From contig CANHFG010000001.1 in assembly GCA_947459875.1 (NCBI GenBank), positions 43,624 to 107,623 of the forward strand: a stretch of 64,000 nucleotides of DNA, given 5' to 3'. This document shows positions 7,134 through 63,705 of this stretch, piece after piece (the stretch's first letter is position 1; each line of letters opens with the position of its first letter). The translations under genes and the position numbers were made by a program. The notes under the pieces are model-generated. The model ran no database searches. It was not told the origin of the DNA and saw only the letters and a program-made list of their open reading frames with translations. This DNA comes from Ignavibacteria bacterium (lineage in GTDB: Bacteria; Bacteroidota; Ignavibacteria; Kapaibacteriales; Kapaibacteriaceae).

Positions 7134-7589
7134 GTAGTGCGGAGACCCCTGTAAGCCGAATTCTGTCTTCCCCACCGGGGTGGGGGAGGCAACCATTTAT
7201 CTGGGATCGATGTTGCCATCGACCTCAAGCGACCTACCCGGACGTTGTTCGCCCCCTTACAGGGACGAGGAACGGCGAACAGCCGTACGCCACCCGAGGG
7301 TAGCCAACGCCCTGCTTGGTCTTGCTCCATGCGGGGTTTACCGAGCCAGACGGTCACCCGTCTGCCGGTGGGCTCTTACCCCACCATTTCACCCTTACCT
7401 GATCCCGTGCGAGCACGGGCCATCGGCGGTGTCTTTCTGCTGCACTTTCCGTTGCCTCGCCGGGCGGCACGAGGCCGCCGAGCTTAGCACCTTCCCGTTA
7501 GGAAGCGCATTGTTCTGCGGAGTTCGGACTTTCCTCCGGCGGAACTCGCAAGGAGCTCCGCCGGCAGTTGCCCGGGATCCCCGACTACG
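7134..7589 (-). ncRNA. rnpB: RNase P RNA, bacterial type A
   Basis: The reverse complement contains GGAGGAAAGUCCG (P4), ACAGAA, CCGCCGAUGGCCCG, GGGAUCAGGUAAGGGUGAAAUGGUGGGGUAAGAGCCCACC and ACAGAAUUCGGCUUA. The 5' CGUAGUCGGGG pairs with the 3' ...CCGCACUACG to form P1. The + ORFs 6914..7303, 7180..7599 and 7245..7487 inside it are spurious. Confidence 0.92.
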
Positions 7590-18200: not shown

Positions 18201-20013
18201 CAACACGAACATTGCCGCTCCGGCATTCTCGGTTAAGCTCTGGATCAAGCCAGATGGAAACGAATCACAGCAGATCTACTGCCGTTCGATCACGGTTCCT
18301 ACGCTCGCCGGAAACCGCGAAGTGATCCTTCCGTTCCCAGACGCAAACTTCCGCACGACGACGCCTGGTAATTACAAGATCACGGGTCGCATCTTCTTCC
18401 CTGGCAATGACCTTGATACTCTGAACGATTCGACGTTCACGATGTTCCGCATGACGTTTGGCCCTGCGTTTGCCTACGAAACCAACCCAGCGAATCCAGC
18501 GAACGACGTTCCGAAGATTCAGTTCTCGGGCGTAACTGGTAAGGGTCTGAACCACGGTGGATTCTCAGCTGGTGCTAACGGTTCAACCTGGCAGTCACTG
18601 CTGACGGGTCCTAACCAGCAGTACACGGCGGGTTCAACGTGGGGTACCTTCCCAGCGCCGCTTGCTGGTTCGCAGATGTATGGTGCTGATGCCGGTAACT
18701 CTTCAGGTCAGCTGGCAATGCGCTTTACACTTTACTCTCAGGACACACTTGCTGGTTACCAGGCTTTCTGGGCAGAACTCAACCAGGACGTTCTGAACAT
18801 CTCGTTCTCTCTCTATCGTGATCAGGGCGGTGTTCCAGGTGACGAGCGTATCGCTAACTCTACAATCCTGCGTCGCCGTGGTGAAGACGAAACGGGCGCA
18901 TTTACCGAGCCTCAGTTCGGTAAGTATGTCACGTATCTGCTCGCTACACCAGTAGTTATCCCACCGGGTGAATACTGGGCTTCGGTTGCTCAGATGGGTA
19001 CGGAAGGCTACGAACTTGGTGCCTCGGAAACACGTATGGGTATGGTGACGACGCTATACTCGGACGTTCCTGTGTTCGGTATCGGTAACCGCTCGCTTCT
19101 TATCGACAAGAACTTCCGCGTGCGCAATCGTGCCGGATCGCTTCTGAACGATAACCGCTTCGCGTATGAAATGACACGCTTCAGCGGTGACTGGGTTCCA
19201 TTCACGCCAACGATCGGTAACCCTGGTTATCCGCATCTTGACGCTATGGGTGGAAGCCTTGGTTATGCCACGTTCACACGTGGTTCATGGATCCCGCTGA
19301 TCCGTCCATTCTTCGGAAATCGGTCGTTCTCAAATCCTCCACTGTTTATTGACTGTGTGGAAAACCCTGTCGAACTGTCCTTCTTTGATGCAAAGGGACG
19401 TTCTGCTGGTGTGGACCTCTTCTGGGAAACAGCGTCGGAAAAGAACAACGTCGGCTTCCATGTCGAGCGCCGCGCCGTCAAGGAAGTACACAACCTTACG
19501 ACGGGCAAGGCTTCGTTCACCTGCGTTGACAACACGACAGATGCAAACAATCCTTGGAAGAACGTTGGTTTTGTTGCTGGATCGGGCAACTCAAATACGA
19601 CGTTGAACTACAAGTTCTTTGATGCTGATGTCACGACGGGAGTTTCGTATCAGTACCGTCTGCGTCAGGTCGACGCTAGCGGCGCGAACAACTTCTCCAA
19701 TGTTGTCGACGTCGAGTTCGGAAACAACGCCAGTGTTGCGCTCGACAATAGCTATCCAAACCCATCGAACGGCAAGACAACGTTCACATTCACGGTTCCA
19801 CAAAGCTCACGCGTCAAGCTTCAAGTGTTTGACCTCATGGGTAATGTTGTCAAGAATGTTTACGACAACGTCGTCGCCGGTCAGTCAGTAGCATACGCTG
19901 TTGAGTGGGATGGTCGTGGCGAAGATGGCGTCGATGTCGCAAGCGGCTCGTACATGTACAAGCTCACCGTTGGTGAGACCATCCTGTCGAAGACGCTGAC
20001 GATCGTTCGCTAA
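15286..20013 (+). CDS. Giant secreted protein of unknown function with a T9SS C-terminal sorting domain (paralog A, ~1575 aa)
   Basis: Signal peptide MSRRLLFLVLMTGLVSVSLAMA. C-terminus ...SYPNPSNGKTTFTFTVP...KLTVGETILSKTLTIVR has the Por/T9SS CTD pattern. No catalytic motif recognised. Codon usage is enriched in GGT/CGT/GTT/GCT. Confidence 0.85.
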   Translation: MSRRLLFLVLMTGLVSVSLAMAADEKDGEDVLRKSGQRTPVASYPQPFTATGPNARTNPAISTGYYFVDSDDEAPDFWRPDPSQFVDTLTEPGTWRRILSGAKQLPTAYWTDPTQNIYGGWAFFRNPGDVRDSTDNAFAGPISIGFPFFFNGVRQDSFYVSTNGLIALSNRRYFYTIDQFGYPVARQTLEVRPGVFSAYDPMSDDTRSRAGNGMTDATLDNWGFNNVACGGNPTSPTAGIRATTNRMMDGNSIAANWGSTLPQLIAPSWDDLQVSVYNPNDNAVDDFSRVYYKRSPSNDKLVIYYVNLTPIGAKTARSGGGPQYNVTFAANNRPGLGEHLRWSLQVTLNRNDSSVTIQYERFSGLAPRTAISPYAATVWMRCNSTVGVTGPARRLNWNGFPSVMPAITALDFDTPKYMQSTEYLYNVDVDPQGGVRAISSRNDDNTVPKDFLAIKFKQFRNVLRVINVSYRVRQQNNNANLAFSVIVPPAQANNYELLAGEDRLGAIQPVAIVQSLTNDIQGPQGVNYVPQGTNFRVRFRIVNEATGKIVYNTSRAVTDAALRDTNISQVFRCDINGNNQPYQPAGTFVLPYEFIKVIFPPFEPNPFIDDQIGRLLTTVIAEPKDSINQPIGDQWPFDDTTSIRIFSMRRLTSFSDDVNEYHLIGGAAMPSVLKWVNIESEVVDGDEVTNNPPPPRGEYAAANSDIFRLKSPVIRMNRLNLANVDIPVIGQYGGDELRSFPVNLVRRKRAVLSISYQRSGKLTNIGRGFSDNRLIGPEHRVNMLAVNGFTPGFRNPDRLLVEFARPSNDGITGITNIQNWILDYMGRATQYLQPFQVWGGGGFARGFDIADYNLQLTNTTTPPLGGLREDLFDDGKDAEYYKVTIPIPDTVLRWVNEGARNFRFRLRASCVMNSLPPAPSDDEDNFYVDNVKLLFPDEVTDIEFSNIQLIWPYTMAPASQATRVPIRVKLSNNTNIAAPAFSVKLWIKPDGNESQQIYCRSITVPTLAGNREVILPFPDANFRTTTPGNYKITGRIFFPGNDLDTLNDSTFTMFRMTFGPAFAYETNPANPANDVPKIQFSGVTGKGLNHGGFSAGANGSTWQSLLTGPNQQYTAGSTWGTFPAPLAGSQMYGADAGNSSGQLAMRFTLYSQDTLAGYQAFWAELNQDVLNISFSLYRDQGGVPGDERIANSTILRRRGEDETGAFTEPQFGKYVTYLLATPVVIPPGEYWASVAQMGTEGYELGASETRMGMVTTLYSDVPVFGIGNRSLLIDKNFRVRNRAGSLLNDNRFAYEMTRFSGDWVPFTPTIGNPGYPHLDAMGGSLGYATFTRGSWIPLIRPFFGNRSFSNPPLFIDCVENPVELSFFDAKGRSAGVDLFWETASEKNNVGFHVERRAVKEVHNLTTGKASFTCVDNTTDANNPWKNVGFVAGSGNSNTTLNYKFFDADVTTGVSYQYRLRQVDASGANNFSNVVDVEFGNNASVALDNSYPNPSNGKTTFTFTVPQSSRVKLQVFDLMGNVVKNVYDNVVAGQSVAYAVEWDGRGEDGVDVASGSYMYKLTVGETILSKTLTIVR

Positions 20014-57407: not shown

Positions 57408-57464
57408 ATACTCCTGCCGTATGGCGTGGTAAGTGGCGATGCCTACTAAACTGTAATGACGGAG

Positions 57465-57546
57465 CGGAGGGCGAGGGACTCGAACCCCCACAGGATCTCT
57501 CCCGGCTGTTTTCAAGACAGCTGCAATACCATTATGCGAGCCCTCC
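57465..57546 (-). tRNA. tRNA-Ser (anticodon UGA), type II, CCA not encoded
   Basis: The reverse complement GGAGGGC-TC-GCAT-AATGGTA-TTGC-A-GCTGT-CTTGAAA-ACAGC-(15-nt variable arm)-GGGGG-TTCGAGT-CCCTC-GCCCTCC-G gives a perfect 7-bp acceptor stem, a U33/A37 anticodon loop and the G73 discriminator typical of Ser. Confidence 0.7.
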
Positions 57547-57584: not shown

Positions 57585-58640
57585 TCACTCCACGGTCTGG
57601 TCGAAACCATCGTCCGGACGTTTATAGTTGGCCTCGTCAATTCCGAGGAACTCTATAACGGATGTGGCAAAAATCTGTTGTTTCGTTGCCGGGGATAGAT
57701 CCGTCATCATCTCGATAAAGCGTCCATGCTCGAGGTCACCCAGCGGGAACGGATAGTCCGTTCCATAGGCGATCTTCTCTGGTCCGATCAGCGCCAGGAG
57801 GTACCGCAAGGCATCGGCATTATGGGTGATCGAGTCGACCCAGAATCGGCCGATATAGCTGGCCGGATCCTGCACGCCATTGACGGCACAGAGGTCAGGA
57901 CGGGCGTGGTATCCGTGTGAGATACGCCCGATGGTGAAAGCGAAAGAGCCCCCTGCATGGGAGAACATCACTTTCAGATTCGGGAAACGGTCAAAGACAC
58001 CACCGAAGATCATGGACGTCATCGACAACGTGGTTTCGGCAGGCATGCCCACAAGCCACTGCTGGAAGTACCGTGCTGTTCGATCGGATCCCATCATCTC
58101 CCACGGATGAACGAAAATGCCTGCCCCGAGGCGTTCGGCCTCTGCCCAGAAGGGATCGAGCGACCGGTCGTCGAGATTCATGCCGTTGATGTTTGTGCCG
58201 ATCTCGATGCCGGGCATTTTCAGCTCAAGCACGCAGCGTCGCATCTCGCTAATGGCCATTTCGACGTCCTGCATCGGGACCGTGCCCAGTCCGATGAAGC
58301 GCCGCGGATGTTGTTCGATCACCGATGCCAGATGGTCGTTCAGGAACCGCGACCAGTCGAGCGCATCTTTGGCTGGGGCCCAGTAGGAGAACAGCACCGG
58401 AACCGTGCAGAGCACCATCACGTCCACGTGATGCGCATCCATATCACGGATAATGGCCAGTGGGTTCCAGCAGTTCTCGTCGATGTCGCGGAAGAACACG
58501 CCGTCATCGCGCATCATGCGCGCTTTGCCGGGCGCGTAATGATCAAGCCAGATAAAGCCACCGTAGCCGTAGCGTTCTTTGAGCGATGGCCAGCGTTCGG
58601 GCAGAATGTGAGCGTGAGAGTCGATCTTGAGCATCGACAT
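57585..58640 (-). CDS. Amidohydrolase-2 family decarboxylase (2-amino-3-carboxymuconate-6-semialdehyde decarboxylase-like)
   Basis: MSMLKIDSHAHILPERWP N-terminus and metal-dependent ACMSD family motifs (HPWEMMG..., DYPFPLGD). Started at the internal ATG, whose TAATG overlaps the upstream gene's stop. Confidence 0.8.
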   Translation of the reverse strand: MSMLKIDSHAHILPERWPSLKERYGYGGFIWLDHYAPGKARMMRDDGVFFRDIDENCWNPLAIIRDMDAHHVDVMVLCTVPVLFSYWAPAKDALDWSRFLNDHLASVIEQHPRRFIGLGTVPMQDVEMAISEMRRCVLELKMPGIEIGTNINGMNLDDRSLDPFWAEAERLGAGIFVHPWEMMGSDRTARYFQQWLVGMPAETTLSMTSMIFGGVFDRFPNLKVMFSHAGGSFAFTIGRISHGYHARPDLCAVNGVQDPASYIGRFWVDSITHNADALRYLLALIGPEKIAYGTDYPFPLGDLEHGRFIEMMTDLSPATKQQIFATSVIEFLGIDEANYKRPDDGFDQTVE

Positions 58641-59161
58641 TACACCTTGGCAGGGGGCTCGATGACCGTTGCGCACTTCTTGCAGGTGCGATGATCCGTG
58701 CTCGACCAGAAGCGTTCGAAGATCGGTGGCAGCTGGGTAACGATATCGGTAAGTGGTAGAAACTCTTCGTAGAGCTTCGTCCCGCACGATTCGCAGAACC
58801 ACATGAACGCGTCCAGTTCGGCTGTCTCACGCTTGCGTTCCACCACCAGTCCGACGGTATTGGCTGGACGTTGCGGGGAGTGTGGCGTGCGAGGCGGCAG
58901 CAGGAACATGTCGCCTTCGTTGATATGCATGTCGCGCGGCACCCCGTCGTCGATCACCTTCACCGTGATGTCTCCCTCGAGCTGGTAGAACAGCTCTTCA
59001 CCTTCATTGTAGTGGTAATCCTTGCGGGCATTTGGTCCGCCCACGATCATGACGATGAACTCCGTGTCCTCGTAGACCTTGGCATTCCCAACCGGTGGTT
59101 TGAGCAGGTGACGGTGCTCGTCGATCCACGTTTTCAATGGAAATGGGGCTCGGATGGCCAT
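58640..59161 (-). CDS. 3-hydroxyanthranilate 3,4-dioxygenase
   Basis: Cupin core (FIVMIVGGPNARKDYHYNEGEELFYQLEGD) and the C-terminal rubredoxin-like CESCGTK...CKKC site. About 173 aa from the internal ATG; the ORF track extends to 59551. Confidence 0.85.
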   Translation of the reverse strand: MAIRAPFPLKTWIDEHRHLLKPPVGNAKVYEDTEFIVMIVGGPNARKDYHYNEGEELFYQLEGDITVKVIDDGVPRDMHINEGDMFLLPPRTPHSPQRPANTVGLVVERKRETAELDAFMWFCESCGTKLYEEFLPLTDIVTQLPPIFERFWSSTDHRTCKKCATVIEPPAKV

Positions 59162-59222
59162 GTGGGGTCCTTTCGGAGTTGGTAGCTTTGCGGTAACAAA
59201 GCTACAAATCGGAGCGCATCTC

Positions 59223-60014
59223 ATGAATCTGGACATCACGGGGAAGACGGCACTGGTCTGCGGTGCGTCAAAGGGTATCGGGCGGGCAACGGCCATCGAG
59301 CTGGCCTCAAACGGAGCAACGGTCGTGGCTCTGGCCCGAAGTGCCGAACTTCTGCGCACGGTTGTTTCCGAGCTGCCGACACCCAGCGGTGCACGGCACC
59401 ACGCGCTTGCAGTCGACCTTGGCAACGAAACCGAGTATCTAACAGGTGTGAATAACGTTGTGGATATTGTTGGCGCTATCCACATCCTGGTCAACAACAC
59501 CGCTGGTCCCGCTGCGGGGCCGCTGCGAAAGAGCTCTGTTGCTGATCTCATACAAGCTTTTGAAAATCATATTCTTGTGGCTCAACGCCTGATGTCCGCT
59601 CTCGTGCCTCACATGGAACGTTCCGGATATGGCCGAATAATCAACATCGTTTCCACATCGGTGAAACAGCCCATCGAAGGACTAGGCGTCAGCAACACGA
59701 TCCGCGGTGCAATGTCCAGCTGGGCCAAGACCCTGGCAACGGAACTCGGCCCCACGGGCATTACCGTGAATAACGTCCTGCCGGGTGCGACCATGACCGA
59801 GAGGCTAGAGGCGATCATCGACCGGAACGTGGCTTCCAGTGGGCGTTCCCGCGACGAGGTCGTCGGCTCGATGGTTTCAGAGATACCGCTCGGACGCTTT
59901 GCGCAACCTGACGAGATCGCTGCCGCGGTAGCATTTCTGGCCTCACCGGCCGCGGCCTACATCAGCGGCACGAGCATCCTGGTTGACGGAGGAAGAACGA
60001 AGGCTCTGAGCTGA
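59223..60014 (+). CDS. SDR-family oxidoreductase
   Basis: TGKTALVCGASKGIGRA Rossmann motif and a conserved Y...K active-site region, 263 aa from the ATG at 59223. Confidence 0.85.
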   Translation: MNLDITGKTALVCGASKGIGRATAIELASNGATVVALARSAELLRTVVSELPTPSGARHHALAVDLGNETEYLTGVNNVVDIVGAIHILVNNTAGPAAGPLRKSSVADLIQAFENHILVAQRLMSALVPHMERSGYGRIINIVSTSVKQPIEGLGVSNTIRGAMSSWAKTLATELGPTGITVNNVLPGATMTERLEAIIDRNVASSGRSRDEVVGSMVSEIPLGRFAQPDEIAAAVAFLASPAAAYISGTSILVDGGRTKALS

Positions 60015-60035
60015 GTCGGCGAGAGCGTTTCCACG

Positions 60036-60250
60036 CTATCCACAATTCGTGGATAACCTGTGTGCAAATCATCGCGACCAGCCCCCTTTCCCGCTTGCAT
60101 TGGCCATAATTGTCCACTACATTTGTTCTTTCACTAACTCGTTGCGAATATGAATGGATATGTCCATTTTGTCCTTCAGGTGACCGCAGCGATCAGGTGG
60201 TAAAACGGGGATTATCAACAGATGTGAATAACTGACTGAAGTTATTCACG
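60036..60250. promoter_or_regulatory. Cluster of DnaA-box-like 9-mers (TTATNCACA, at most one mismatch) around an AT-rich core, immediately upstream of ftsQ
   Basis: cTATCCACA at 60036-44. TTATCCACg on the minus strand at 60049-57, which with the first forms the palindrome TATCCAC-aattc-GTGGATA. TTGTCCACt at 60109-17. TTATCAACA at 60213-21. TTATTCACA (9/9) on the minus strand at 60224-32. TTATTCACg at 60242-50, forming the palindrome GTGAATAAC-n8-GTTATTCAC. The region is about 45% GC, against about 60% in the flanks. Confidence 0.5.
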
Positions 60251-60253
60251 GAT

Positions 60254-61063
60254 ATGAGGATAGTGGTGGCCAAGCGAGCACGGCAACTGGACGTCACAGG
60301 GAAGCCCGAACGGAGAACTTCCGGGCTGATGATCTGTCTACTTGGTCTACTGTTTCTGTCGTTTATGGCCACGCAGTGGAAAGACCGTCAGCGGATCGCG
60401 GACGTCGACGTCGTGGGTGCCACGGGGCTGAGTCGTCTTTCGGTGCAGCGTGCGGTGGACTCTCTGCGCTACCGCCGGGCAAAGTCCATCACGCTGGCCT
60501 CGATCCGCCAGAGCGTCGAGCAGATTCCCTACGTGCGCAAGGCCTCGGTGTACTTTTCGGGTGTGAACGGACTCTGTGTGGATGTTGTCGAGCGACTCCC
60601 GGTGGCGCATGTGCTTCACGCCGGCGGTGTCTTACGGTACGTCGACGACCAGGGTACGGTGCTTCCTGTTGTTCAGGAGCGTACGGCGCACAATGTCCCT
60701 ATGCTGCACGGAACGAACGGATATGTGCTGTCGGAGTCGGAGGTACGTTCACTGACGTCGCTGCTGAATCGTGCGGCGCGGGCGTTGGATCCTCGACTGT
60801 ACCAATCGATCTCCGAGCTAACGTACGACCGGCGTTCGCGCACGGTTGATGTGATCACTGATGATGCCACATGGCATCTCGGCAGCATCGGGTCGGACCG
60901 GGCCACGGAGGCGCTGGCCGACATGAACGTCTTCTGGAAAGATGCATCCGCCTCGCTTCGTCTTGCACACGTTCGTGAGGTTGACCTGCGCTGGCGCAAT
61001 CAAATTGTGCTGCGCTACAGCGCTGAGCGGCCACAGACATCAAGCGGGGGGGCAAGGGTATGA
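60254..61063 (+). CDS. ftsQ: Cell division protein FtsQ (single TM helix plus POTRA)
   Basis: TM helix LMICLLGLLFLSFMATQW and POTRA-like region, with an ATGA overlap with ftsA. Confidence 0.8.
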   Translation: MRIVVAKRARQLDVTGKPERRTSGLMICLLGLLFLSFMATQWKDRQRIADVDVVGATGLSRLSVQRAVDSLRYRRAKSITLASIRQSVEQIPYVRKASVYFSGVNGLCVDVVERLPVAHVLHAGGVLRYVDDQGTVLPVVQERTAHNVPMLHGTNGYVLSESEVRSLTSLLNRAARALDPRLYQSISELTYDRRSRTVDVITDDATWHLGSIGSDRATEALADMNVFWKDASASLRLAHVREVDLRWRNQIVLRYSAERPQTSSGGARV

Positions 61064-62349
61064 GCAAGCAGACGATCCATGCCGGTCTTGATATTGGATC
61101 TACCAAGGTCAGCGCGATCGTGATGTCGCGGGATGCCGACTCGGGTGCCATCGAGGTTATCGGTACGGGCGTTGCCGAATGCGACGGTCTCAAACGCGGC
61201 GTTGTGAGCAATATCAACAAGACCGCAGAGGCTATTCGCGCAGCGGTCGACCGCGCCGAGCAGACCAGTGGGTATCAGCTTGGGCCGGTTGTGGTGGGGA
61301 TAAGCGGCGAGCACATTAGCACGTTCACGACTCGCGGTATTGTAACAACGAGGACGTCGGAGATCTCCGAAAGCGACGTCAAGCGTCTGCATGACGAGCT
61401 GTCGCAGGTGCACGTCACGCCGGACCGTCGCATTCTGCATGTTATTCCGCAGGATTATCTGATCGACGGACAGGATGGTATCTCAGATCCACTCGGAATG
61501 AGCGGACGGCGCCTCGAGGCAAACGCCCTGGTGATCACGGCCAGCTCCTCAGCGGTCGACAACCTGTATAAATGCGTTGAGCGGGCCGGACTGCACGTCG
61601 ATGCCGTGGTGCTTCAATCGATCGCCAGTTCCTACGCCGTTCTCGACGAGGCGGAGCGGGAAGTCGGCGTGGCCCTGGTCGACATCGGCGGTGGCACCAC
61701 CGATATGGCCATTTACAAGGACAACGTTCTACGCTATGTGAGCGTTATCGGCATTGCCGGTCAGCGCGTAACTGATGACATCGTTGCCGTTCTCGGCATC
61801 CGCAATACCGATGCCGAGAGTATCAAGCTCAGCTACGGTCATGCGATCAGCGAGAGCATTCTGCGCGACGAGCATTTCCAGGTTCCGGGAATCGGTGGCC
61901 GCACGCCGACCGAGGTATCGAAGTCGATCCTATGTCAGGTGATCGAACCCCGGATGGAGGAGATCTACGACTTTGTTCTCTCGCGCATTCACGAGTCCGG
62001 CATGTCGCACCAGCTGGCCGCCGGTGTTGTCCTCACGGGCGGGTGCACCGAGCTCTATGGCTCGGAGCAGCTGGCGCAGCGGACCTTCCGACTGCCGGTC
62101 AACAAGGGGCTTCCGCGCGGCTTCGGCAATGACGGTTTTGCCCGTGAAGTGACCACGCCATCCCGGGCAACAGCCATTGGTCTGGCACTCTATGGAATCA
62201 AACATCACCACGAATTCATCTCTGATTCACATGACGTTCAACCGACAATTCAGGCAGCAAAAGATGCGCCCCCTGCAGAACCTGCGGAGGTTCATGTTCA
62301 TAAAAAGGGAGTCGTTCAGCGACTCAAAGACTGGTTTGAAAACTTCTGA
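61060..62349 (+). CDS. ftsA: Cell division protein FtsA
   Basis: Actin-fold motifs (GLDIGSTKVSAIV, DIGGGTTD), 429 aa. Confidence 0.92.
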   Translation: MSKQTIHAGLDIGSTKVSAIVMSRDADSGAIEVIGTGVAECDGLKRGVVSNINKTAEAIRAAVDRAEQTSGYQLGPVVVGISGEHISTFTTRGIVTTRTSEISESDVKRLHDELSQVHVTPDRRILHVIPQDYLIDGQDGISDPLGMSGRRLEANALVITASSSAVDNLYKCVERAGLHVDAVVLQSIASSYAVLDEAEREVGVALVDIGGGTTDMAIYKDNVLRYVSVIGIAGQRVTDDIVAVLGIRNTDAESIKLSYGHAISESILRDEHFQVPGIGGRTPTEVSKSILCQVIEPRMEEIYDFVLSRIHESGMSHQLAAGVVLTGGCTELYGSEQLAQRTFRLPVNKGLPRGFGNDGFAREVTTPSRATAIGLALYGIKHHHEFISDSHDVQPTIQAAKDAPPAEPAEVHVHKKGVVQRLKDWFENF

Positions 62350-62388
62350 CTGGTTAAGTTCACGAAACATGACTGATTTCCGGGGGGA

Positions 62389-63705
62389 ATGATGGCAATT
62401 GAGTTGGATGTATCATCTCTGACGTCCGATGCACGCATTCGCGTGGTCGGCGTAGGCGGCGGTGGCGGCAATGCAGTCCGCACCATGATCGCCCGTGGAC
62501 TCGATGGAGTCGAGTTCGTTGCAGCAAACACAGACCGTCAGGCTCTTTTGAGCAATCCGGCTGGCATCAAGCTTCAGCTTGGTAAGGATGTGACGCGTGG
62601 TCTTGGAGCCGGAGCCGATCCCAATAGGGGGCGGATGGCTGTCGAGGAAAGCCTTGACGACGTGCGCGAAGCCCTTGAAGGCAGTGACATGATCTTCGTG
62701 ACCGCTGGTATGGGCGGAGGCACGGGGACCGGGGCTGCGCCGGTGATCGCACGTATTGGTCGCGAGATCGGTGCCCTCGTCGTGGGCATCGTGACCAAGC
62801 CGTTCAACTATGAATCCAAAAGGCGCATGGCCGTTGCCGAAAACGGCATCAAGGACCTGCGCGAACATGTAGATGCGCTGATCGTCATTCCCAATCAGCG
62901 GATCCTGACGGTCGTGGACAGGGACGTAACGTTTGCCAATGCGCTCATGATGGTCGACAACGTTCTGTACAACGCCACGAAGGGCATTGCGGATATCATC
63001 TCCGGTGTCGGGTATATGAACGTCGACTTTGCCGACGTCCGCACGGTCATGTCCGGCATGGGCGATGCGCTCATGGGGATCGGCCGCGCCAGTGGCGAGC
63101 ACCGTGCCATTGAGGCAGCACAGAACGCATTGAATTCTCCGATCCTTGAGGGCATGTCGATCTTCGGTGCGCAGGGACTTCTTGTCAATGTGACAGGGGG
63201 CTCGGGCATGACAATGTTCGAGGTCAGCGAAGCTGTCGCCGCCATCGAACAGGCCGCCGGCGATGAGGTGAACCTCATCCACGGCGTGGTGATCGACGAA
63301 CGTATGGAAGACGAGATCGCCATCACAGTTGTGGCCACGGGCTTCCACCGTCAACACGAAGAAAAGAAAGCCACGGTTGTTCCTGTGGCAGCGCCGGTGG
63401 CCGGGCCTATCATCGAGATCGTCCGCCAGCAGCCAGAACGCGATGTGGTAGCGGAAACTCCCGCACCATCGCCAGCTCCAACTGCTCCTGCCGCATCTGA
63501 AATTGATGTCAACGACATCAACGTTCCGACCTATCTGCGACGTCAACGCGAACGTGAGCAGGACCATCGTCAGACCGGTATGCCACATTCCGAGCCCCCT
63601 TCATCGGGCTCCGTTCCTGTAGCCGCTCCGGATCCATCTCAACCGCAGATGCGCCGCGCTGCCGCCGGCAGCCAACCGGCGTTTCTGCGGAAAATCATGG
63701 ATTGA
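62389..63705 (+). CDS. ftsZ: Cell division protein FtsZ
   Basis: Tubulin signature GGGTGTG (GMGGGTGTGAAPVIA), NTDRQAL, and a C-terminal conserved peptide (DVNDINVPTYLRRQ). Confidence 0.95.
   Translation: MMAIELDVSSLTSDARIRVVGVGGGGGNAVRTMIARGLDGVEFVAANTDRQALLSNPAGIKLQLGKDVTRGLGAGADPNRGRMAVEESLDDVREALEGSDMIFVTAGMGGGTGTGAAPVIARIGREIGALVVGIVTKPFNYESKRRMAVAENGIKDLREHVDALIVIPNQRILTVVDRDVTFANALMMVDNVLYNATKGIADIISGVGYMNVDFADVRTVMSGMGDALMGIGRASGEHRAIEAAQNALNSPILEGMSIFGAQGLLVNVTGGSGMTMFEVSEAVAAIEQAAGDEVNLIHGVVIDERMEDEIAITVVATGFHRQHEEKKATVVPVAAPVAGPIIEIVRQQPERDVVAETPAPSPAPTAPAASEIDVNDINVPTYLRRQREREQDHRQTGMPHSEPPSSGSVPVAAPDPSQPQMRRAAAGSQPAFLRKIMD

Follow-up and report, generated by a model that had tools for sequence, protein, structure and literature searches.

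A conserved cluster of DnaA-box-like sites around a Bacteroidota-type promoter suggests DnaA-gated expression of ftsQAZ in an uncultured Bacteroidota lineage

This work concerns a spacer of 239 bp (positions 60015-60253) in a stretch of 64,000 nucleotides from an Ignavibacteria bacterium, which in its full length is referred to as the window. The spacer separates a gene encoding a short-chain dehydrogenase (SDR) from the division genes ftsQ, ftsA and ftsZ, with the SDR gene pointing in the same direction as ftsQ. An original prediction, made from the letters of the window, had described in this spacer a dense cluster of sites resembling DnaA boxes together with an A+T-rich core, and had proposed it to be either an origin of replication (oriC) or a DnaA-controlled division promoter. 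Both cluster and core are present, and the evidence described in the following argues at the level of the sequence for the second proposal, with boxes that match the DnaA consensus being conserved at fixed distances from a putative promoter.

Related loci were collected by scanning a single genome for each species, which provided 15 loci with 75-100% identity in FtsA from metagenome-assembled genomes labelled Kapaibacterium, Ignavibacteria or Bacteroidota (with Kapaibacterium being placed within Bacteroidota in the NCBI taxonomy), and in a protein search combined with look-ups, which added six more distant loci with FtsA identities from 73% to 48%. In the following, the 19 lineages comprise the window and the 18 related genomes that contain the boxes (FtsA identity 95% to 55%), and A1 denotes an alignment of 16 spacers. 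The FtsQ of the window is found as identical protein on several freshwater metagenome contigs. The order of the genes for 3-hydroxyanthranilate dioxygenase, SDR and ftsQAZ is preserved down to about 60% FtsA identity, and the succession of SDR and ftsQ is retained in 17 of the 18 related loci containing boxes, the exception being the locus L029. Within the clade, ftsQAZ (window 57585-63705 and related loci) has become split off from the mur/ddl part of the division and cell-wall cluster and is stably linked instead to genes of the kynurenine pathway, encoding an ACMSD-like amidohydrolase and 3-hydroxyanthranilate dioxygenase, and to the SDR gene. The features of the locus are as follows:

59223-60014, plus strand: SDR gene (Pfam adh_short_C2, E 3.5e-43), with the spacer beginning after its stop codon
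60027-60035, plus strand: box a, GTTTCCACG, a weak DnaA-type site with two mismatches to TTWTNCACA, in closer relatives only (A1, box table)
60036-60044, plus strand: box b, CTATCCACA, forming the left half of the palindrome TCCAC-n5-GTGGA, which is conserved
60048-60056, minus strand: box c, TTATCCACG (on the plus strand cGTGGATAA), the best conserved box
60061-60069, minus strand: box d, ATTTGCACA (on the plus strand TGTGCAAAT), fitting the relaxed consensus and found as perfect TTATCCACA in locus L013
60088-60100, plus strand: putative -33 region TTTCCnCTTGCrT with its TTG at 60095-97, CTTGC being invariant in A1
60110-60118, plus strand: weak box TTGTCCACT within the promoter spacer, abutting the -7 element, in close relatives only
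60118-60125, plus strand: putative -7 element TACATTTG (TAnnTTTG), invariant across A1
60131-60200, plus strand: predicted 5'-terminal leader stem-loop, pairing 60131-35 with 60196-200 and 60139-46 with 60185-92
60134-60151, plus strand: leader block (G)TAACnCnTTG..AATA
60212-60220, plus strand: box e1, TTATCAACA, differing from TTWTNCACA at 0-2 positions in every one of the 19 lineages
60223-60231, minus strand: box e2, TTATTCACA, a perfect site starting at a fixed distance from the -7 element
60242-60250, plus strand: box e3, TTATTCACG, inverted with respect to e2 (second palindrome) and found in 12 of the 19 lineages
60256-60268, plus strand: GAGGA and GTG start of ftsQ (A1, gene calls of some contigs)
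60254-61063, plus strand: ftsQ as initially delimited (Pfam POTRA_1)
61060-62349, plus strand: ftsA (Pfam FtsA/SHS2_FTSA)
62389-63705, plus strand: ftsZ (Pfam Tubulin/FtsZ_C)

The start of ftsQ had been assigned to the ATG at 60254, a codon that is not conserved in orthologues. Conserved in A1 is instead the Shine-Dalgarno-like GAGGA (60256-60) with a GTG behind it (60266, alternatively 60263), and a FtsQ of 265 residues beginning at this GTG is called on some contigs. Because the conserved start is the GTG and not the ATG, the last box, which was believed to end 4 nt ahead of the ATG, is in fact located 5 nt before the ribosome-binding site.

The local clustering of boxes is beyond chance although the window as a whole is not enriched in such sites. 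A search with TTATNCACA, permitting at most one mismatch, finds 27 matches in the window compared to 24.1 expected, and in the spacer it identifies five, at 60036(+), 60048(-), 60212(+), 60223(-) and 60242(+). Six had been counted previously, the sixth of which, ATTTGCACA on the minus strand at 60061-69, only appears with the relaxed consensus TTWTNCACA. Where about 0.2 sites had previously been given as the chance expectation, we calculate an expectation of about 0.09 per 239 bp, and five sites within 215 bp were reached in none of 200 dinucleotide shuffles of the window, which contained three at maximum. The first of two proposed palindromes, TATCCAC-aattc-GTGGATA, is located at 60037-60055 as described, and the second, consisting of GTGAATAAC (60224-32) and GTTATTCAC (60241-49) separated by eight nucleotides, is equally present but had been extended by one base too far. 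The core at 60100-60179 contains 37.5% G+C (62% A+T), compared to about 58% G+C for the window.

Box-like 9-mers are also encountered elsewhere in the window. Three matches with one mismatch, about 128 bp apart at 19100-19364, reside inside an open reading frame of 1608 residues and probably stem from a repeated domain of the protein instead of being DnaA sites. A perfect TTATCCACA at 9227-35 is found 12 bp upstream of the -7-like sequence TAGATTTG (9248-55), with no TTG at the expected -33 position, in a spacer between a gene of the NIF3 family (minus strand) and an unannotated open reading frame followed by TrmO (plus strand).

The alignment A1 shows a mean column identity of 64% and contains 50 invariant columns, which are distributed over five blocks:

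Block A: TCCAC-n5-GTGGA(T/A)A with TGTG behind it, comprising boxes b, c and d, with box a added in closer relatives
Block B: TTTCCnCTTGC
Block C: TACATTTG
Block D: GTAACnCnTTG..AATA
Block E: ACAnATGTGAATAAC, with another box ahead of it

Read in one orientation, box b appears as nTATCCACA, box c as TTATCCACn or ATTTCCACA, box d as ATTTGCACA, TTTTTCACA or TTATCCACA, box e1 as TTATCAACA, TTTTGCACA or TTGTGCACA, box e2 as TTATTCACA or TTATCAACA and box e3 as TTATTCAC(G/A). All of them fit TT(A/T)TNCACA with a variable position 5, and this sequence with its free fifth position constitutes the classical relaxed DnaA box. The TCCAC core of box b is invariant in all 16 sequences of A1 and degenerate only in L027 and L029. 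In the 18 related loci, the spacer contains 3-7 sites per approximately 250 bp compared to 0.07-0.37 elsewhere, which corresponds to a 21-fold increase in density, and two or three boxes are placed right before the GAGGA/GTG start in all of these genomes. In L029, whose FtsA is 55% identical and which lacks an upstream SDR gene, the downstream boxes read TTATCCACA, ATATCCACA and TTATCCACA, with a perfect TTATCCACA also being found at box c. About 750 bp of non-coding DNA precede ftsQ in this locus and contain the additional box-like sequences GTGGATATTACGGTGGATAAC and TTTTCCACATTTGTGGGAAAA 300-400 bp upstream of the promoter (L029 2640-2810). We considered the remnant of an SDR pseudogene as a source of these sites and found none by tblastn.

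Blocks B and C together form the sequence TTG-n20-TAnnTTTG (60095-60125), of which there is no second match in the 64 kb window. This arrangement conforms to Bacteroidota-type sigma-A promoters, in which a TTG is separated by 17-23 nt from a TAnnTTTG, and we thus assign it by its sequence as such a promoter of ftsQAZ. The same type has been mapped by differential RNA sequencing in Chlorobaculum of the sister group Chlorobiota (bioRxiv 10.1101/172254). With its -33 TTG and the -7 element TACATTTG invariably 20 nt apart, we detect no difference to other sigma-A promoters of Bacteroidota and Chlorobiota, and it appears ordinary in this respect. The window contains more copies of the -7 motif TAnnTTTG than expected (16 compared to 8.9), and about half of these fall into the approximately 6% of non-coding DNA. 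In more distant relatives, the -33 region reads ATTTCCACTTGC, which provides a further box-like 9-mer overlapping with the -33 element. Neither a sigma-70 promoter of the E. coli type nor an intrinsic terminator is predicted in the spacer. Because blocks B and C form TTG-n20-TAnnTTTG, the A+T-rich core, formerly proposed as DNA unwinding element, is by its sequence the conserved core promoter with the start of the transcript and its leader. As judged from the position of the -7 element, transcription would start at about 60130-60133.

A different palindrome, TAGCTTTG-cggtaa-CAAAGCTA at 59183-59204, is located between the divergent genes for 3-hydroxyanthranilate dioxygenase (minus strand) and SDR (plus strand). 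It yields a TAnnTTTG -7 element on both strands and is likely a pair of back-to-back promoters.

In all 19 lineages, the elements of the spacer obey a common geometry, where box c is separated from the -33 TTG by 38-39 nt, the -33 from the -7 element by 20 nt, the -7 element from block D by 7-8 nt and the -7 element from the start of box e2 by 97-99 nt. All spacings are thus constant within 1-2 bp, including that of a stretch of about 50 nt in the leader between block D and box e1, which is not conserved in sequence despite its constant length. A spacing that is free of insertions and deletions is unusual for a 5' leader and suggests a nucleoprotein complex with defined phasing. Since the distances between box c, promoter and box e2 are invariant, we interpret the arrangement in terms of a fixed protein-DNA geometry.

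Besides the boxes and the promoter, the blocks GTAACnCnTTG..AATA (60134-60151) and GGATAT (60157-60162) of the leader are kept in every lineage, including the most distant ones that contain boxes, and the DnaA-box consensus does not account for them. The first might constitute the 5' arm of a leader stem-loop. The 5' end of the leader, from about 60131, can pair with a partner located 40-60 nt downstream, and the predicted fold has an energy of -23.6 kcal/mol with a z-score of -1.6 in the window. The pairing partners vary in a compensatory manner between lineages, with UCGUUGCG/CGCAGCGA in the window compared to CCUUGAU/AUCAAGG in L017. In 7 of 16 sequences the duplex energies are better than those of shuffled partners (p ≤0.01), and a Fisher combination calculated by hand for about ten lineages results in a value of about 1e-6. 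A test of the pairing at fixed offset did not reach significance when applied to four loci of greater distance (p 0.49-0.85), and RNAalifold did not detect covariation in the leader of the nine closest sequences. Because of these two results and a z-score of only -1.6, we regard the predicted stem-loop as no more than a plausible suggestion. The region 59950-60350 does not match any Rfam family, with the best sub-threshold hit at 18 bits compared to a gathering score of 43. We have also considered a leader peptide and rejected it upon inspection of A1. The ATG at 60150 opens reading frames of 2-17 codons, in the window MNGYVHFVLQVTAAIRW at 60150-60203, and is present in 12 of 16 leaders. Since neither length nor sequence of this mini-open reading frame are conserved, it probably does not encode a leader peptide.

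Together, the conserved DnaA-type boxes located at and near the promoter and their fixed distances lead us to propose, with a probability of about 0.6, that the region 60015-60265 is, in this Kapaibacterium-like member of Bacteroidota, a DnaA-gated promoter of ftsQAZ with its 5' leader and not a chromosomal replication origin. As such, the spacer would probably act as a control switch from replication to division. In this mechanism, a sigma-A promoter would fire at about 60131, with boxes a-d placed at about -105 to -60 and boxes e1-e3 at about +80 to +120, directly ahead of the ribosome-binding site, and with weaker boxes overlapping the -33 element and the promoter spacer in some lineages. 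DnaA would occupy the boxes and set the transcription of ftsQAZ by its level or nucleotide state, thereby tying the expression of division genes to the initiation of replication. The geometry could be explained if DnaA bound upstream touches the RNA polymerase, if the two groups of boxes are bridged around the promoter, or both. The overlap of boxes with the core promoter and their location in the transcribed leader would favour repression or a roadblock at high levels of DnaA-ATP, and activation would also be compatible with box c, which is phased and located upstream. What the sequences show is the presence, significance, conservation and geometry of boxes and promoter as well as the lack of origin features; binding by DnaA, the site of the transcription start and the direction and mechanism of control are deduced.

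Several observations weigh against this interpretation. The assignment of DnaA as binding protein is based on the identity of the motif with the near-universal DnaA box, and the transcription start is a prediction from the position of the -7 element. In E. coli, DnaA boxes near ftsQA have turned out to be irrelevant for the transcription of ftsZ (PMC8203912), and the presence of boxes alone does thus not prove control. Two of the most distant loci, L030 and L031 with FtsA identities of 48-50%, are devoid of boxes, although the latter still contains TACATTTG, and the arrangement is therefore specific to the clade. Finally, box-like 9-mers are also found within the SDR coding region, where they could be explained by the encoded protein. 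This region contains three of them within 38 bp at 59447-59484 (TTATTCACA, ATATCCACA and CTATCCACA). The first two stay box-like in 16 of 16 orthologues while the encoded residues vary (VNN/VHN/VQN and VDI/VEN/VDN/VDK), with the valine codon always being GTG. They could be additional DnaA sites or the mere consequence of coding constraint.

A more far-reaching version of a DnaA-controlled promoter, in which boxes a-d, boxes e1-e3 and the promoter form a single rigid nucleoprotein switch with DnaA oligomers bridging or looping about 175 bp and gating ftsQAZ once per cell cycle, appears unlikely to us in this strict form. Its signature would be the strict spacing without insertions and deletions that persists down to 55% FtsA identity. 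In such case, an origin-like assembly would have been re-used as division checkpoint, which might also titrate or recycle DnaA.

Likewise unlikely is the possibility that the motifs serve as operators of a regulator other than DnaA, either a dimeric helix-turn-helix protein binding to TCCAC-n5-GTGGA or MraZ, by which clusters of division and cell-wall genes are usually regulated. DnaA is assigned to the sites by their motif, and the spacing of the palindrome formed by boxes b and c is exact in 17 of 19 lineages. MraZ recognizes GTG(G/T) boxes (PMC12957436), and GTGG forms the core of boxes a-c. We nevertheless rejected a MraZ operator since its repeat geometry does not fit: MraZ sites consist of at least three direct GTG(G/T) repeats with spacers of 6 nt (PMC12957436), whereas inspection shows here a core made up of two inverted sites, direct repeats at periods of 9, 11 or 13 and a GTGA in e2. 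Also against a dimeric regulator, the full 9-mer is conserved including its TTWT part and the free position 5, and box c stays perfect in L027 and L029, where the left arm of the palindrome is lost. Similarly, the gaps between head-to-head boxes differ, with 3 nt between b and c and 2, 3 or 4 nt between e1 and e2, and boxes e2 and e3 are arranged tail-to-tail with gaps of 8-11 nt and a and b as direct repeats. Because the relative arrangements vary and the loss of the left arm is tolerated, separate boxes are favoured, whose behaviour suits independently bound monomer sites better than a rigid dimer operator.

An improbable alternative places the function of the palindrome formed by e2 and e3 in the RNA, where a hairpin at 60223-60250 (extended 60211-60264) would mask part of the ribosome-binding site and start codon and control the translation of ftsQ or the stability of the mRNA, with the resemblance to DnaA boxes being incidental. 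A hairpin covering the ribosome-binding region had been brought up in the original prediction and it can indeed form: it is predicted to be stable in the window (-21.2 kcal/mol, z-score -3.8), with an outer helix that pairs with GAUAGU beside GAGGA and reaches the GAGGA and GTG region. One-sided changes in close relatives are mostly compatible with wobble pairing, in distant relatives this box is the centre of another hairpin, and z-scores of the folding of whole leaders are mostly negative. Still, the hairpin is not the feature that is conserved. Its 3' arm, e3, is missing in 7 of 19 lineages, RNAalifold did not find a double compensatory change in the nine closest sequences, and no Rfam family covers the region. 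In L026, L027 and L028, the complementarity of e2 and e3 amounts to 8, 6 and 5 of 9 pairs, while each arm is still within 0-2 mismatches of the box consensus, with the mismatch in L026 located exactly at the free position 5. The same 9-mer is also conserved upstream of the promoter, where it would not be transcribed. Since the arms keep the box consensus while the pairing decays and identical boxes are found upstream of the promoter, we consider the conserved unit to be a DNA site. A hairpin may coexist with control by DnaA as a by-product of inverted boxes.

Even less probable is a site of the datA or DARS type, which would titrate DnaA or alter its nucleotide state and be located next to ftsQ by coincidence. 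Several close boxes in mixed orientation and with fixed spacing would be in accordance with such a site, and clusters of this kind outside oriC occur in E. coli and B. subtilis (PMC4585315; PMC2533591). Conversely, the boxes keep exact distances from the -33 and -7 elements and from the start codon in all lineages, and this exactness argues for a coupling to the ftsQ promoter. Accessory sites of the IHF or Fis type were not seen, although no search was aimed at them.

Least probable of all, and discarded on account of GC skew, gene-strand bias, the absence of dnaA and a promoter in its A+T-rich core, is a chromosomal origin of replication. In this proposal, the spacer would be oriC or half of a bipartite origin with two groups of DnaA boxes flanking an A+T-rich unwinding element. 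The dense and conserved cluster and the low G+C content of the core would fit an origin, constant spacing with variable intervening sequence is also typical of origins, and L029 contains about nine boxes in its non-coding region of approximately 750 bp, which is flanked by divergent genes. However, the GC skew of the plus strand, which we have analyzed on the left side over about 60 kb, on the right side over about 12 kb by an extension from an almost identical contig, and in the related loci, does not change sign at the site in the window and in nearly all of these loci. It is positive throughout the window and remains so when resolved by gene strand (+0.013 and +0.026 on the left, +0.031 and +0.028 on the right). 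Both flanks are likewise positive in 16 of the 18 related loci with boxes, L029 included, with small negative values in the left flank of L010 and L027; the related loci are syntenic and thus not fully independent in this respect, but the strand-resolved result of the window does not rest on them. Of the 57 kb of coding DNA to the left, 73% is located on the plus strand and thus directed towards the site, which is opposite to the pattern of an origin. A linkage to dnaA and dnaN is usual for oriC yet not obligatory. Neither gene was found among Pfam matches, which cover the window genes except those at 31 to 51 kb, or in the tables of genes between about -68 and +12 kb of the site, the former limit including an extension of 8 kb to the left without dnaA, and a DnaA domain-IV signature is absent from all frames of the window and of loci L001-L025. 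Inspection of A1 did not reveal conserved 13-mer repeats or a DnaA-trio array, no dedicated prediction of unwinding being run, and the A+T-rich core does not qualify as unwinding element because it is occupied by the invariant -33/-7 promoter and the leader block. In the cultured relative Melioribacter, oriC is the spacer between dnaA and dnaN at the skew transition (PMC3534657), which also counts against an origin at ftsQAZ. For annotation this calls for caution, as origin finders relying on box density would wrongly identify an origin in a box cluster combined with an A+T-rich core next to ftsQAZ.

Among systems with related features, we find in bipartite origins, such as those of B. subtilis or the oriC1/oriC2 pair of Helicobacter pylori (PMC3479198), a similar arrangement of two groups of boxes about 150-200 bp or more apart with A+T-rich DNA in between. 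Unlike these, the spacer shows no skew switch, no adjacent dnaA and no unwinding repeats, and contains a putative promoter and transcribed leader between the groups. Parallels are also offered by the role of DnaA as a transcription factor (PMC8203912): in Caulobacter it binds and controls ftsZ, and in B. subtilis it is bound to the promoter of ftsL. For ftsZ of Caulobacter crescentus, in vitro binding of DnaA and an in vivo dependence on it have been demonstrated (Hottes et al. 2005 and Fernandez-Fernandez et al. 2011, reviewed in PMC8203912). There, as proposed here, a core division gene has boxes in the region of its promoter and the initiator times division genes. The ftsQAZ locus, known from its sequence, differs in phylum and promoter type, and its six to eight boxes form two groups, which are placed on either side of the promoter with invariant spacing and reach to the ribosome-binding site. 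In B. subtilis, stable clusters of DnaA boxes outside oriC (sda, ywlC, yydA and others) regulate neighbouring genes (Ishikawa et al. 2007, PMC2533591). These resemble the spacer as dense intergenic groups of consensus or near-consensus boxes that are conserved among relatives and modulate the adjacent gene positively or negatively. They tend to be located near oriC, for which there is no indication here, and they differ with respect to the target ftsQAZ and the flanking layout of fixed spacing. Finally, matches to DnaA boxes are also found beside the ftsQAZ genes of E. coli, but these reside inside the coding regions of ftsQ and ftsA, whereas the numerous matches described here lie between genes, are in phase with the promoter and have been conserved throughout a clade of family level or deeper. 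Elsewhere in the window, a class A RNase P RNA (7136-7583, minus strand, 249 bits) and a tRNA-Ser(TGA) (57464-57546, minus strand) are ordinary genes.

To our knowledge, the coupling of replication and division has been well worked out in only few model organisms, and we know of a direct link between DnaA and ftsZ that is established in Caulobacter only. With its defined boxes and putative promoter, the described locus of about 250 bp offers a clean and testable target. If correct, the proposed control of ftsQAZ would constitute an independent instance of a link from DnaA to division in an uncultured lineage of Bacteroidota, placing it into the setting of a new phylum and with an unusually elaborate and rigid layout.

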